Program-made: the position numbers and the translations under genes | Part shown: one piece after another, positions 10,690 through 14,421 of the stretch | Layout of the letters: each line of letters begins with the position of its first letter | Position numbering within the stretch: position 1 is the first letter of the stretch | From: Arenicellales bacterium | GTDB lineage: Bacteria; Pseudomonadota; Gammaproteobacteria; Arenicellales; JAJDZL01 | Direction of reading: 5' to 3' | Assembly (NCBI GenBank): GCA_951813075.1 | Contig: OX638343.1 | Coordinates: forward strand, 2,103,999 to 2,167,998 | DNA: 64,000 nucleotides | Notes under the pieces: generated by a model | Databases searched by the model: none | What the model was told of the DNA's origin: nothing | Seen by the model: only the letters and a program-made list of their open reading frames with translations

Positions 10690-11625
10690 ATGCCCAATGA
10701 CCAAATGAATAAATCTCAAATCATTCTCCTGCAGATGCTGATTGTTTTGGTCGCAGTGACCGCGATTGTAATTTGGCAGTACGAATATCTGGCTGACTTA
10801 TATATCCGAAATCAGATCACCCGAATTGGCTTGGTCATCAATATTGCGATTGTCGTGCTATTTGTTTCAGGGCTGTCGCAGTTGGTACGGCTGTTCTTTC
10901 TGTATGATCGGGAGGAGAAAGCACTGCAGCAGTTTTCCGATGCACTGACGTCAGAAGATATGGAGCTGAAACTCAGTCAGCTATCCGAGAACACTATCAT
11001 CGGGCAACGATATCGGATAGTGAGCGATTTTTTCAGCGCGCGGGCTGAATTCAATCACAACGCGCTTGCTGCAACATTGCTCGCACACGAGACCAGCCGA
11101 ACCAGTTTTGCTAAATTTGTCAATAACATACTGATACTCACAGGTGTTTTCGGTACGATTATCTCGCTGACTGTGGCACTCTTGGGCGCATCCACAGCAA
11201 TTTCCGATACCAACAGCCTGCGGGGTATTGATATCGTCATTCACGGCATGTCGACAGCATTGTCCACTACGATGACTGCGATTCTGGCTTATTTTCTGTT
11301 CGGTTACTTTTACTTGAAGTTGCTTGACACACAATCTTACATTCTTGGAAAGATCGAACACGTGACGGCCACGGTTCTGATTCCGCAGTATCAGGCCGCA
11401 GCACGTTCGCCTGAACAGAATTTGAGTGCAATGCTCGCCGGTACAGTTGAAACAATTAAAAAGTTTGATGCTTTCATTCGTCAAATTCAGGAAATCAGTG
11501 CCAAACAGGACGAGGTGTTTACTAATTTTGAGAAATTAACTAACGAGAATATGCATCTTCTAAGGGATATTCGCGGCATATTGCGTACTGGATTCAGATT
11601 ACGCGACAAATCTGACAGAAACTAA
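10690..11625 (+). CDS. MotA/TolQ/ExbB-family proton-channel (stator A) subunit-like protein
   Basis: There are 2+2 predicted TM helices separated by a ~75-aa loop. TM3/TM4 read LTGVFGTIISL ... GMSTALSTTMTAILAYFLFGYF, which lines up with the ExbB/MotA channel signature (GLLGTV ... GIseALltT). The cytoplasmic tail is about 100 aa. An alternative start is the ATG at 10705. Confidence 0.72.
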   Translation: MPNDQMNKSQIILLQMLIVLVAVTAIVIWQYEYLADLYIRNQITRIGLVINIAIVVLFVSGLSQLVRLFFLYDREEKALQQFSDALTSEDMELKLSQLSENTIIGQRYRIVSDFFSARAEFNHNALAATLLAHETSRTSFAKFVNNILILTGVFGTIISLTVALLGASTAISDTNSLRGIDIVIHGMSTALSTTMTAILAYFLFGYFYLKLLDTQSYILGKIEHVTATVLIPQYQAAARSPEQNLSAMLAGTVETIKKFDAFIRQIQEISAKQDEVFTNFEKLTNENMHLLRDIRGILRTGFRLRDKSDRN

Positions 11626-11643
11626 CCCCGGAGGGGGATAAAA

Positions 11644-14421
11644 ATGACCTGGAACACTGGCGGGTTTGTTGACCTGCGCGTTCATCGGGCATCCGAAGCC
11701 AGTCACTCGGACGATAGTATATGGCCATCATTCACCGACATCATGATGGTAATCGTGATGATATTTCTGATGGCTTCGGTCATTTTCATGCTTCGGAATG
11801 TTCAGTTGGGAAAAGACCTGCAATCGTCTCTCTCGGCCGAAACCGAAGCCACACAGGAAATCGTCTCACTTCAAGAAAGAACTGCCTATCTATCTGAAAT
11901 CATTAAACAAACAGAACAACGCGTATTCGACTCGGAGCGCCTCAGGACAGAGGCAAGCATTCTCGCGGAGCAACGCGGCACCCGGATCGCTGAGCTTGAG
12001 TATGAGACCGCCGATCTTTATCGCGCACAGGCACAGTTGAATTTGGAATTGGATGGTCTCAACGCCCAACTCACCGAAATTCGTGTCGAACGGACACAGC
12101 TGACCGACCGTATTGCATCTATGAATTCAGTTATCGCGGACTTGGAATTGGTTAGTGAGAGCAAGTCGCAGGCATTGACTATTCTGCAACAGAATTTTGA
12201 CCAGAAGCTGAATGAACTTCAGGCTTTGGAATCAAACCTCGCCGAAAAACAAATTGAAATTGCAACTTTGCAGGAATCATTGGAAAACTTGCGAATCGTT
12301 GAGCTTGAACAACAAAAAAACATCGCGGAATTAGTTCAGACGCGGATGACGTTGGAATCACTCAGCGATTTACAGAAATCGCAAATAACACAAATGATTC
12401 AATTACATAGTGAACTCGAAACACAGTCTGAAAAGCAACAGACCGAGATTGCGCAATTGACAGAAAGGCGAGATGAACTGCATTCGCTGAGTGATGAACA
12501 ATCTGCTCGTATTGCGATGTTACTTGGAAATCAGGCTCAACTCGAATCTACCTTGGATGAGCAGTCGACACAAATAACACAACTGACAGCGGAGCGCGGT
12601 GAGCTCGAAGCATTGAGTGCGGAGCGTTTGACCCGTATCGCGACACTGCTTGAAGATCAGGGTCAGCTTGAATCTGTCTTGGACGAGCAATCGACACAAA
12701 TAACACAACTGACAGCGGAGCGCGGTGAGCTCGAAGCATTGAATGTAGAACGATTGGCCCGTATCGCGACACTGCTTGAAGATCAGGGTCAGCTCGAATC
12801 CGTCTTGGACGAGCAGTCGACACAAATTACGCAACTGACAGTTGAGCGCGGTGAATTGGAAGCATTGAGTGCGGAGCGGTTGGCCCGTATTGAGTCATTG
12901 CTCAGAATTCGTAGTGCGCTTGAAGCGACGACAAGAGAGCAGTTGGTGCGGATTACGCAACAGGAACAGACCCGAATTGAGCTTGAGAAACTCACCGAAG
13001 AGCAAAAGGCACAGATTGAGCAACTGAGCATGACACAGGTCGCACTGGAGAATCGAGGCGAAGAACTTCGGACGAAGGTTGCACAGCTGAACACAACCAT
13101 TGAGAATCTGGAATCCCTGCGAAGTGATCAACTGACAGAGGTAGCTCAACTGATTGAGGAGCGTAAGCAGCTTGAGGAAGTCAGTCAGGAGCAAATCCGG
13201 CAGATAACACAATTGATTCAACAACGTACTGAACTACATGTGCGAAGTCAGGATCAGCAGGATACAATCGTTCTTTTGGGCGATCAACGAAACCAATTGC
13301 AAGCCCGAAGCGAAGAACAAGCGATACAGCTTGCGAGATTGGCCCAGGAACTTGACCAACGCGAAAAGGAACAAACCAGGCAGGAAAGGGAACTCGCAGC
13401 GATTCGAGTAGAATTGGACGCGCGTGGTCAGGCGCTTGAGCAAGTCTCACTGACCAGTTTGCAGCAGGAAACAGCTATAGAACGGCTGACTGAAACAGGT
13501 TCGGAACAGGAGTCAGACATCAGTCGACTGACTGCGATTGAGCTTCAGAATCTGGTGACAATTGAACGTCAGCAGCAGGAAATAGCCAATTTAACGTCGC
13601 AAGTTGGTGCGCTGAGTGCAACAAACGCGGAGTATCAAGATCAACTTTCATCGCTCAATCAAATACTTGGCAGCATTCGCACCGTGGAGCAGGAACTTCG
13701 TGAACAATCAACAGTCCGTGAAGAGGAAATTAATGTACAGCAAACCCAGATCGCGAGGCTTGAGAGTGATCTTGCGACAATGTTTCAAGAAAGAATCGAC
13801 CTTCAGAACCTGAATCAGGCTCTGGAAAGAGAGATATCATTTCTAACGCGTCGACAGACCGACCAGGAGACACAGCTTGAGACATTGCGTTCTGTGACCG
13901 ACCGACTCAGTACGGATATTCAAAACAGGCAGCAGCAGATTGATACGCTGACTCTCCAGAGGGAAGAATTACGAACTGACAGAGAAAAGTCGCAAAGCGA
14001 ACTTGAGGAATTGAAGCGGGCCTATCAGGATCGATTGAACGAATTGGCACAGCTGCAAGTCGCATTTTCCGAAAGAAGCCAGGAAGCACAGGATCTGAGA
14101 ACGGACCTGGTCGAACTTCAGGATGAGACACAGTTGATGCTGCGTCCAGCCAGAAGCCCTGCCAACCGATATGTTGTAGAAATTCGCTACACAAAAGACG
14201 AGTCTGGAGCTCAGATCATTTCCTACAAGTTACCGGACGAGACCGTTGCCAGCTTTGTTGGTCGAGAACAATTGGATGCTGTTCTTACCGAATTGAAAGC
14301 CGAGCGGCCCGAGGGACTATATACTCGGATTGTGTTTCCTCAGCAAGAACTCCTGACTTTCGAGGAAGCTTGGGGGTTTACTCAGCAGATTCTTTCCCGA
14401 TATGATTATTATCACCAGTAA
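11644..14421 (+). CDS. MotB/ExbD-like stator B subunit fused to a ~780-residue coiled-coil rod and a C-terminal ~90-aa globular domain
   Basis: GGAGG lies 9 nt upstream, and the gene starts 18 nt after the A-like gene. The N-terminal TM segment WPSFTDIMMVIVMIFLMAS aligns with E. coli MotB YADFMTAMMAFFLVMW, including the channel Asp. Residues ~55-835 are continuous Q/E/L-rich heptad-like sequence. I saw no Walker A and no OmpA-type N..LS..RA motif. Confidence 0.7.
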   Translation: MTWNTGGFVDLRVHRASEASHSDDSIWPSFTDIMMVIVMIFLMASVIFMLRNVQLGKDLQSSLSAETEATQEIVSLQERTAYLSEIIKQTEQRVFDSERLRTEASILAEQRGTRIAELEYETADLYRAQAQLNLELDGLNAQLTEIRVERTQLTDRIASMNSVIADLELVSESKSQALTILQQNFDQKLNELQALESNLAEKQIEIATLQESLENLRIVELEQQKNIAELVQTRMTLESLSDLQKSQITQMIQLHSELETQSEKQQTEIAQLTERRDELHSLSDEQSARIAMLLGNQAQLESTLDEQSTQITQLTAERGELEALSAERLTRIATLLEDQGQLESVLDEQSTQITQLTAERGELEALNVERLARIATLLEDQGQLESVLDEQSTQITQLTVERGELEALSAERLARIESLLRIRSALEATTREQLVRITQQEQTRIELEKLTEEQKAQIEQLSMTQVALENRGEELRTKVAQLNTTIENLESLRSDQLTEVAQLIEERKQLEEVSQEQIRQITQLIQQRTELHVRSQDQQDTIVLLGDQRNQLQARSEEQAIQLARLAQELDQREKEQTRQERELAAIRVELDARGQALEQVSLTSLQQETAIERLTETGSEQESDISRLTAIELQNLVTIERQQQEIANLTSQVGALSATNAEYQDQLSSLNQILGSIRTVEQELREQSTVREEEINVQQTQIARLESDLATMFQERIDLQNLNQALEREISFLTRRQTDQETQLETLRSVTDRLSTDIQNRQQQIDTLTLQREELRTDREKSQSELEELKRAYQDRLNELAQLQVAFSERSQEAQDLRTDLVELQDETQLMLRPARSPANRYVVEIRYTKDESGAQIISYKLPDETVASFVGREQLDAVLTELKAERPEGLYTRIVFPQQELLTFEEAWGFTQQILSRYDYYHQ
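12487..12890 (+). repeat. 3.2 tandem copies of an in-frame 126-bp (42-aa) module inside the coiled-coil gene
   Basis: Units start at 12487, 12613, 12739 and 12865. The consensus is LSAERLxRIATLLEDQGQLESVLDEQSTQITQLTAERGELEA. A 52-nt block is exactly repeated at 12565-12616 and 12691-12742. Confidence 0.9.

Follow-up and report, generated by a model that had tools for sequence, protein, structure and literature searches.

A probable ion-driven motor of the 5:2 superfamily with a coiled-coil rod on its B subunit, encoded between mnmE and mnmG in Arenicellales

We analysed a stretch of 64,000 nucleotides from an Arenicellales bacterium (contig OX638343.1 of assembly GCA_951813075.1, positions 2,103,999 to 2,167,998; hereafter the window), in which two adjacent genes, here called A and B, lie between mnmE and mnmG. 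We consider it probable that the two genes encode a motor of the 5:2 ion-driven superfamily, divergent and stand-alone, in which a dimer of B serves as a periplasmic shaft or tether. A has the fold of this superfamily, and B combines a transmembrane helix of the ZorB/ExbD type, with an invariant Asp, with a continuous coiled coil of the dimer type and a conserved domain at its tip; the two genes are strictly paired. The elements of the pair are as follows.

10690..11625, plus strand: gene A, an open reading frame (ORF) of 311 residues encoding a membrane subunit of the MotA/ExbB/TolQ/ZorA superfamily
11644..14421, plus strand: gene B, an ORF of 925 residues encoding a predicted axle-type subunit made up of a cytoplasmic N-terminal peptide, a transmembrane helix that bears Asp32, the coiled-coil rod and an alpha/beta domain at the C-terminus
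11630..11637, plus strand: Shine-Dalgarno sequence GGAGGGGG for gene B, within the 18-nucleotide spacer between A and B, read from the sequence

The original prediction, made from the letters of this DNA and a list of its ORFs, had described two ORFs 18 nucleotides apart with a GGAGG ahead of B, and this description is exact; GGAGGGGG ends 6 nucleotides ahead of the ATG of B. It had also given A a MotA-type topology, which hydropathy, the distribution of Lys and Arg and an AlphaFold2 (AF2) model all bear out. Transmembrane segments lie near residues 11-29, 48-66 and 147-165 by hydropathy, and a fourth, Ser/Thr-rich membrane helix starts near residue 183, inside a helix that the AF2 model extends over residues 177-238. 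The remainder comprises a loop of 76 residues, two short loops and a helical-hairpin tail of about 100 (101) residues ending in a conserved LRxGFRL. Lys and Arg are concentrated in the 76-residue loop (9) and the 101-residue tail (14), with 2 and 1 in the two short loops, which argues for a MotA-type orientation with loop and tail in the cytoplasm.

11086..11328, plus strand: region of A that forms the channel (residues 133-213), matched by PF01618 and comprising transmembrane helices 3 and 4

Next we consider the fold of A. When the AF2 model (predicted local distance difference test, pLDDT, 81) was compared with the PDB using Foldseek, the top 50 matches were all A subunits of 5:2 motors, with ExbB first (6tyi_A, E value 4e-4, target template-modelling score up to 0.68), followed by TolQ, ZorA, MotA and PomA. 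The match probability is at least 0.95 for the top 45 and lower at ranks 46, 47 and 50. Pfam PF01618 (MotA_ExbB) matches residues 133-213 below its gathering cut-off (18.5 bits against 22.9, E value 0.0017); the same model recurs in 36 of the 37 aligned relatives of A at E<=0.01 (best 2.7e-5), and a few relatives carry a precomputed PF01618 assignment. The fold matches and this recurrent weak profile match together uphold the earlier assignment of A to the MotA/TolQ/ExbB type. Furthermore, a PADLOC scan returned weak ZorA matches for A (E value 7e-4) and none for B; an NCBIfam scan of A gave no motor match. We place A in the superfamily because of the fold and profile searches, its scores being below the Pfam thresholds, and regard the fold match as the decisive test. 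On this modelled structure, A is a very divergent member of the MotA/ExbB/TolQ/ZorA superfamily that combines a four-helix topology like that of MotA and ZorA with a condensed helical cytoplasmic domain like that of ExbB.

The strongest conservation in both A and B falls on the presumed ion pathway. In transmembrane helix 3 of A (ILILTGVFGTIISL, the ILILTGVFGT stretch) G152, G155 and T156 are invariant, and in helix 4 (HGMSTALSTTMTAI) everything from H185 to I198 is invariant, including T194, throughout the family. The WQ..L...Y..NQ motif of an A loop is likewise invariant in the family, and conservation is also strong in the cytoplasmic parts of A, among them INHNALAATLL and the GFRL at its C-terminus. 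An hhalign alignment of the A family with Escherichia coli ExbB puts GVFGT on GLFGT (T148) and STALSTTM on AEALLATA (T181), so that T156 and T194 fall on ExbB T148 and T181, the channel-helix Thr residues that face the Asp of the B subunit, in an alignment that is itself not significant (probability <1%). The ExbB and TolR sequences used with hhalign are identical to PDB chains.

11662..11679, plus strand: GFVDLR motif, B residues 7-12, predicted cytoplasmic, from an alignment (A3) of 48 homologues
11722..11793, plus strand: transmembrane helix of B, residues 27-50, WPSFTDIMMVIVMIFLMASVIFML, with the Asp32 codon at 11737-11739

B has a single hydrophobic segment (residues 32-50 by hydropathy), which directly follows WPSFTD. 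Eight residues in and around it, W27, P28, S29, F30, D32, F41, N52 and L55, are invariant in all 48 homologues; in the GFVDLR motif F8 and R12 are invariant and D10 and L11 nearly so. Searched with a family profile of the N-terminal 70 residues of B, the solved structures yield ZorB chains first, each with its Asp aligned: 8vvn_B, a type I ZorB of Shewanella (E value 4e-6), 8vvi_A, a type II ZorB of Sulfuricurvum (E value 8.6e-5), and 8qyd_F, the ZorB of E. coli (E value 0.005) (PMC11890865, PMC11946911). Several ExbD chains come after them, again with the Asp aligned (E value 0.19-1.1), and no solved MotB or PomB chain is found among the matches at E<=10. The Pfam models are weaker. Full-length B of the window matches neither PF13677 (MotB_plug) nor PF02472 (ExbD), its first 70 residues give ExbD at an E value of 0.074, and among the N-termini of the 48 homologues there are sub-threshold matches to ExbD in 18 (best 0.0043) and to MotB_plug in 5 (best 0.0099). 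The profile thus indicates that B carries a transmembrane helix of the superfamily's axle type, closest to that of ZorB and then to that of ExbD. The conserved Asp and the homology to motor B subunits that had been claimed for this helix stand, with the correction that the helix, earlier aligned with MotB, is nearest to ZorB. We also observed that the C-terminus of A (LRTGFRLR, 11584-11607) and the N-terminus of B (GFVDLR, 11662-11679) are alike, near-invariant and both predicted to be cytoplasmic, and the two motifs, GFRLR and GFVDLR, may be in contact.

11812..14139, plus strand: coiled-coil rod of 111 heptads (B residues 57-832), with a straight length of about 115 nm, from composition, proline positions and a register scan
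12523..12890, plus strand: tandem array of a 126-nucleotide repeat (42 residues, 6 heptads) within the rod, 2.9 copies with 87% matches by Tandem Repeats Finder

The rod is rich in Leu (15%), Glu (15%) and Gln (14%). B is free of proline between residues 29 and 834, and a single heptad register runs across almost all of this length. In the one global register over the 111 rod heptads, Ile and Leu prevail at the core positions (a = Ile 30 / Leu 22, d = Leu 62). By established coiled-coil rules, a core with Ile at a and Leu at d is the classical one for parallel two-stranded coils. Judged by this register, the rod is a coiled coil of the dimer type, which fits an axle of two B subunits. The unbroken heptad rod with a globular end of about 90 residues, as originally described, is thus supported by the register, the absence of proline and a terminal domain that AF2 folds. 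Matches on the rod in Pfam, NCBIfam and PADLOC are to coiled-coil proteins of the SMC, Rad50 and JetC type; an SMC-like or JetC-like reading of B was rejected, as the scores lie far below the curated cut-offs and cover the rod only. In the closest relative, L002, A is 91% identical, and the two B proteins differ by a sole indel of 84 residues, that is 2 x 42 residues or 12 heptads, at residues 287-370 and inside the repeat array. The 42-residue tandem array is the source of recent change in rod length.

14140..14418, plus strand: C-terminal domain, B residues 833-925, from the RPAR junction motif to the YDYYHQ end, with the order beta-beta-beta-alpha-beta-alpha

The C-terminal 90-95 residues or so are conserved in every homologue, with the pattern RPAR-S..G+YVVEVRY...LY.K[IV]I.P...LS..EAW.FT.....YDYY.Q. 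The AF2 model of this domain, built from a 71-sequence alignment, has a pLDDT of 85 overall and above 90 over most of the domain. A fold search against the PDB gave no significant match and no OmpA-like chain among its matches; the periplasmic domain of E. coli TolR (5by4) has the highest probability (0.80) and template-modelling score (0.50/0.56), with a root-mean-square deviation of 3.1 Å over 92 columns and an E value of 0.48. With hhalign, the domain aligns with TolR and with ExbD at probabilities below 1%, and Pfam ExbD weakly matches 3 of the 48 C-terminal domains. No OmpA domain (PF00691) was detected in B of the window, in 10 full-length homologues or in the 48 C-terminal domains. On the modelled structure, the domain is possibly TolR/ExbD-like, which we treat as a lead and not as a result. 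Of the four Pfam models proposed earlier as a check of the pair (PF01618, PF13677, PF02472 and PF00691), none reached its threshold.

We then examined how widely the pair occurs. Homologues of A number 2727 at E<=1e-3 in a 90%-clustered database and at least about 500 stretches among 185,579 species-representative genomes. In a set of 1.84 billion 50%-cluster representatives there are only 667 at E<=1e-3 and 125 at E<=1e-30. The family is compact and discrete, and it stays separate from the very large one of MotA/ExbB. The carriers among the matches listed are mostly marine Gammaproteobacteria: Arenicellales, which are closest and include many host-associated assemblies, SUP05/Thioglobus-like metagenome-assembled genomes (MAGs), Sedimenticolaceae, Candidatus Thiodiazotropha, tubeworm and clam symbionts, Candidatus Spongiihabitans and Chromatiales, with some Zetaproteobacteria. 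Fragments with the C-terminal domain also appear under the labels Nitrospinota and Desulfobacula. The family has no name in Pfam or NCBIfam; its A proteins are labelled "hypothetical" at NCBI and JGI, and some B fragments "chromosome segregation ATPase" at JGI.

In all loci readable by contig and gene call, B directly follows A, either overlapping it or starting within a few tens of nucleotides, and this pairing is kept in two unrelated genomic contexts. The first is that of the window, where the pair is flanked as follows.

9244..10623, plus strand: mnmE, 5' flank, with a 66-nucleotide gap to A, from its ORF and from MnmE homology in the loci
14440..16326, plus strand: mnmG, 3' flank, beginning after an 18-nucleotide gap behind B, from its ORF and from homology in the loci

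Every Arenicellales-like locus that we examined has the pair between mnmE and mnmG, in a dnaA-rnpA-yidC-mnmE / mnmG-rsmG-parAB block. The pair has therefore long been part of the origin block, passed on by vertical inheritance, and is no insertion. In Sedimenticola, Thiodiazotropha, tubeworm symbionts and Zetaproteobacteria the pair lies elsewhere, among unrelated housekeeping genes; its neighbours there include a glycerate-kinase-like gene, DUF455, phosphoesterase, cyclophilin, HDOD, Slp, MscS, TsaB and AcrB. The mnmE-mnmG interval, which the original prediction had suggested comparing among relatives, always holds the pair in Arenicellales-like loci and behaves as a variable slot for unrelated inserts. 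Two lineages have a MoxR AAA gene, an unnamed gene and a TgpA transglutaminase gene between B and mnmG (L028:10132-14113 and L068:10385-14154, minus strand), and a SUP05-like MAG has urocanase, enoyl-CoA hydratase and arginase genes between mnmE and A (L027:2236-7440). No conserved third gene was found across the fetched loci, in the origin block or elsewhere. The MoxR-TgpA genes, the urocanase and arginase genes and the housekeeping neighbours were considered as a third component and set aside, for none is consistently linked to the pair.

Rod length varies widely within the family. All 70 of 70 homologues have proline-free rods, with lengths of 145-1118 residues (median 398) or 21-166 nm, computed at 0.1485 nm per residue. 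Lengths of 145-290 residues are frequent; the short rods of 145-201 residues (21-30 nm) occur in Zetaproteobacteria, Thiodiazotropha, Sedimenticola and tubeworm symbionts, and those above 450 residues in Arenicellales and some SUP05-like MAGs. The rod of about 780 residues described by the original prediction is therefore real in the window, but it is not the norm of the family, in which long rods are lineage-specific tandem expansions. Distinct rod lengths number 43; of these, 25 are congruent to 5 modulo 7 (binomial p value 3e-11 against 1/7) and 9 to 2 modulo 7, which equals one stutter or stammer; related genomes are not independent samples here, but the lengths counted are distinct. The rod thus changes by whole heptads, which preserves a continuous coil and hence a fixed angular phase from the transmembrane helix to the terminal domain. 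The long rod of the window is accordingly a lineage-specific expansion within Arenicellales by whole-heptad tandem duplication. We also observed that in four close Arenicellales relatives (L003, L004, L005 and L025) B has 1107, 953, 967 and 1261 residues, and that three of these lengths, 953, 1107 and 1261, rise in steps of exactly 154 residues (22 heptads), which suggests a second, larger tandem unit besides that of 42 residues.

A separate variant was seen on a 227-kilobase metagenome contig (L082:6001-9410). Its A-like protein (P0322, 669 residues) has a repetitive helical C-terminal tail of about 370 residues, placed as in ZorA, and is followed by a B of 439 residues with the WPSFTD helix, a proline-free rod and an RPARS...YDYYYQ end, and then by a Fic-domain gene. 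With a tailed A and a rod-bearing B, this variant ties the family architecturally to Zorya.

By homology, the rod would lie in the periplasm. The cytoplasm would accommodate a coil of 100 nm or more much better, and this raises the question of whether B might instead be inverted, or its C-terminus not translocated, making the pair a device like Zorya but with B and not A bearing the long tail. The flanks of the B helix (2 Lys/Arg and 4 Asp/Glu before it, 2 Lys/Arg and 1 Asp/Glu after it) could be read in this sense, with an acidic N-terminal side and Arg51 and Lys57 on the C-terminal side, and so could the SMC/Rad50 type of the coiled-coil profile matches. However, the N-terminus, helix and Asp of B are collinear with those of ZorB and ExbD, which are N-in by their structures. 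The flank of ZorB is equally acidic, so that the flank charges alone are no argument against the canonical N-in topology. Furthermore, the charge distribution of A gives the canonical orientation, the rods of the short-rod relatives match the width of a periplasm, and the SMC-type matches, far under curated thresholds, reflect coiled-coil composition alone. We therefore hold a cytoplasmic rod to be very improbable.

Under the hypothesis that we favour, a 5:2 motor with the B dimer as a shaft, five A subunits would form a ring in the membrane and two B subunits would put their Asp32-bearing helices into its centre. Passage of H+ or Na+ over Asp32 and the Thr/Ser-lined helices 3 and 4 of A would drive rotation of A relative to B; coupling to Na+ is possible, as a speculation from the Ser/Thr-rich lumen and the marine hosts. 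About six residues beyond the membrane helix, the two B chains would zip into a parallel two-stranded coiled coil that runs out along the axis of the ring through its periplasmic mouth, where R51, N52 and L55 of B, all invariant, and the WQ..L...Y..NQ loop of A would be placed. The tip of the rod would bear the small alpha/beta domain, possibly TolR/ExbD-like, and the rod would act as a drive shaft or tether between the motor and a target in the layer of the peptidoglycan or outer membrane. We infer the 5:2 stoichiometry, the rotation, the periplasmic location and the target by analogy with known motors of this kind. Rods of 21-30 nm match the span from inner to outer membrane, and this is the strongest hint that crossing the periplasm was the original role. 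A rod of about 115 nm exceeds the periplasm, so it must tilt or run along the envelope and cannot stand perpendicular.

Several observations weigh against this hypothesis. Neither A nor B passes any curated Pfam or NCBIfam threshold. Searches of PDB sequences using phmmer with A and with the family profile A1 found no motor subunit, and only helical-bundle noise on the tail of A. The hhalign probabilities against E. coli ExbB, ExbD and TolR are all below 1%, and the TolR resemblance of the C-terminal domain, at an E value of 0.48, is statistically not significant. The flank charges of B give by themselves no N-in signal. Finally, rods of 60-166 nm are several times the width of the periplasm and hard to fit with a perpendicular drive shaft.

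This last point bears on a structural or ruler role, in which the B dimer would be a periplasmic scaffold for spacing, shape or tethering, and the MotAB-like module would be its membrane anchor with little or no motor activity. Long rods that far exceed the periplasm could lie in plane like cytoskeletal elements, and the rapid evolution of length by repeats and the housekeeping contexts of the pair agree with such a role. On the other hand, the residues of the ion pathway (Asp32 of B; G152, G155, T156 and H185-I198 of A) are the most conserved, which argues for selection on an ion-coupled activity, and a plain anchor needs no dedicated partner of 311 residues in strict synteny. On balance we find a purely structural role quite improbable.

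We also considered an anchored stator like that of Zorya or MotAB. Here the C-terminal domain of B would be fixed to peptidoglycan, the rod would be a leash and the A pentamer would move, and the cytoplasmic helical domain of A with its LRxGFRL tail would act on a cytoplasmic or membrane partner, for instance in envelope-stress sensing. The transmembrane helix of B is nearest to that of ZorB, A has weak matches to ZorA models, one variant (L082) has a ZorA-like A tail of about 370 residues, and A is highly conserved in its cytoplasmic parts (INHNALAATLL, C-terminal GFRL). Rod length is also unconstrained, as that of a leash would be. Nevertheless, an OmpA-type peptidoglycan-binding domain was not detected, effector or partner genes are absent from all contexts examined, the A tail in the window is merely a hairpin of about 100 residues, and a plain leash needs no proline-free, heptad-phased coil. 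Both the anchored arrangement and the proposed action of A on such a partner seem to us unlikely, if not to be dismissed.

Returning to the motor with a B-dimer shaft, one may go further and suppose a new ion-powered envelope machine, in which a rigid, heptad-phased B shaft is spun or tensioned in the periplasm and, at the 100-166 nm seen in Arenicellales and SUP05-like bacteria, becomes an in-plane, motor-driven filament or cytoskeleton. We offer this as a tentative extension that is more likely wrong than right by a good deal. If true, the machine would have a role like envelope remodelling, tethering, mixing or shape control, which no known 5:2 motor performs.

The window as a whole is a replication-origin neighbourhood. 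After dnaA (565-1935, minus strand) come a pair of Zn-dehydrogenase and esterase genes, an ankyrin-repeat protein gene, rnpA, yidC, mnmE, A, B and mnmG, and beyond mnmG follow rsmG, parA, parB and a gene for a BamC/NlpB-like lipoprotein. The G+C content of the A-B pair is 0.47-0.49, compared with 0.45-0.51 in its flanks. The conserved synteny across Arenicellales and this matching G+C agree with the original prediction that the pair belongs to the origin block and is no recent insertion; on the same grounds we rejected an origin in a mobile element or defence island. A scan for promoters and terminators gave no signal exceeding shuffled expectation.

The genes around the pair are relevant to whether it could be a degenerate or novel anti-phage defence module of the Zorya type. 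The weak PADLOC matches of A to ZorA (E value 7e-4) and the ZorB-like helix of B would allow it. There are, however, no ZorC, ZorD, ZorE or nuclease genes in the window; the pair sits in the core origin block in all Arenicellales-like loci examined and in another housekeeping block elsewhere; its base composition is that of the host; and, in contrast to defence islands, the family occurs in single copy and is conserved by vertical descent. We give a defence module hardly any credence. Likewise, no TonB, TolA, tol-pal or TonB-dependent receptor genes adjoin the pair in the window or the fetched loci, and no type IX secretion system (T9SS) or flagellar genes lie near it in the window, so the earlier statement that partner genes are not adjacent holds for the window and for the loci fetched since.

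Other features of the window were noted in passing. At 5413-6492 (plus strand), inserted between dnaA and rnpA, is a protein of 359 residues made almost entirely of ankyrin repeats, with a hydrophobic, signal-peptide-like N-terminus. Ankyrin-repeat proteins of this kind are typical of sponge and invertebrate symbionts, and this one fits the host-associated Arenicellales relatives. At 2674-4656 (plus strand), between dnaA and the rnpA block, a Zn-dependent alcohol dehydrogenase is followed by a PF00756 esterase, an unusual presence in an origin region; we presume that the two resemble a formaldehyde-detoxification pair of the frmA/frmB type. The BamC/NlpB-like lipoprotein (18710-19843, plus strand; PF06804, E value 1e-16) contains a run of seven lysines and lies directly 3' of parB. 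Finally, the longest mnmE ORF, which begins with GTG at 9244, shares 34 nucleotides with the end of yidC (9244-9277), and the real start of mnmE may be downstream.

Flagellar rotation, Ton-dependent nutrient import, the integrity of the envelope through Tol-Pal, gliding with type IX secretion, and immunity by Zorya all depend on motors of the 5:2 kind, and each newly characterised branch has revealed another use of the same rotary core. The branch described here is abundant among marine bacteria of ecological importance that oxidise sulfur and iron, and among symbionts of invertebrates. It is also attractive for experiments, being a self-contained two-gene system suited to cryo-EM and cryo-ET whose output element is built into B as a continuous coiled coil, with a length that nature has varied about eight-fold in whole heptads. 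Such a natural length series could reveal whether rotation occurs in the axle of a 5:2 motor, and in what way force or torque travels across or along the periplasm.

Among the known systems, ExbB-ExbD and TolQ-TolR provide the best fold matches for A, whose cytoplasmic domain is likewise helical and condensed. With hhalign, the channel motifs GxFGT and ALxxT of A fall on those of ExbB (probability <1%), the Asp-bearing helix of B weakly matches ExbD, and the order of secondary structure in the modelled terminal domain is that of ExbD and TolR, with TolR as its best, though not significant, match. In contrast to ExbB and TolQ, A of the window has four membrane helices, as MotA and ZorA do, and not three. 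Family B proteins differ from ExbD and TolR by the 145-1118 coiled-coil residues between helix and terminal domain, and the pair differs from the Ton system and from Tol-Pal in having no TonB or TolA partner and a sequence similarity under all curated thresholds.

ZorA-ZorB comes closest in another respect, as solved ZorB chains are the nearest sequence relatives of the B helix and its N-terminal flank, and ZorA is among the fold matches of A. Zorya also bears a very long coiled coil on a 5:2 motor, the ZorA tail being about 70 nm (PMC11946911). That coil, however, is a cytoplasmic pentameric bundle of A tails, whereas here the coil is of the dimer type, on B and predicted to be periplasmic; the A tail of the window is a helical hairpin of about 100 residues and not a long cytoplasmic coiled coil. 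ZorB ends in a peptidoglycan-binding domain, of which none was detected in family B. Unlike Zorya, the pair has no linked effectors (ZorC/ZorD, ZorE or ZorF/ZorG) and sits in a core-genome context, not in a defence island.

MotAB and PomAB share with the pair the four-helix topology of A, a lower-rank fold match to MotA and PomA, and the Asp-bearing helix of B. They differ in what the family does without: a torque-generating cytoplasmic interface, a plug-linker, an OmpA-like domain and nearby flagellar genes.

In GldM/PorM, a B-type dimer with one transmembrane helix per chain forms a long shaft that spans the periplasm and transmits the output of the motor. The original prediction had held that B subunits normally have a short linker and a small domain; this was too strong, and the GldM/PorM shaft is the counter-case. 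The likeness of our pair to GldLM/PorLM, a periplasmic shaft on the B subunit (here predicted), is functional only; GldL and PorL are absent from the top 50 fold matches of A, and no similarity to GldLM/PorLM in sequence or fold was found. The GldM shaft is built of globular domains, has a fixed length and is co-encoded with T9SS genes, whereas the family rod is a coiled coil of variable length. By this comparison, a short-rod system would work like GldM, or like ExbD and TonB, or TolR and TolA, fused into one chain.

Literature searches found no described system with a giant coiled coil on a motor B subunit, in line with the original prediction, which could name none of this architecture. The nearest published concepts concern different families, namely MotAB relatives termed "generic ion transporter" (GIT) with diverse appendages (PMC12505986) and von Willebrand factor A (vWA) proteins with transpore helices (PMC12204202). 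Taken together, these comparisons set the pair apart from MotAB, ExbBD/TolQR, Zorya and GldLM, each by the features that define it, while its fold and transmembrane helix keep it within the 5:2 superfamily. It is a real, ancient and uncharacterised branch of a known kind of motor, with a new architecture in its B subunit.

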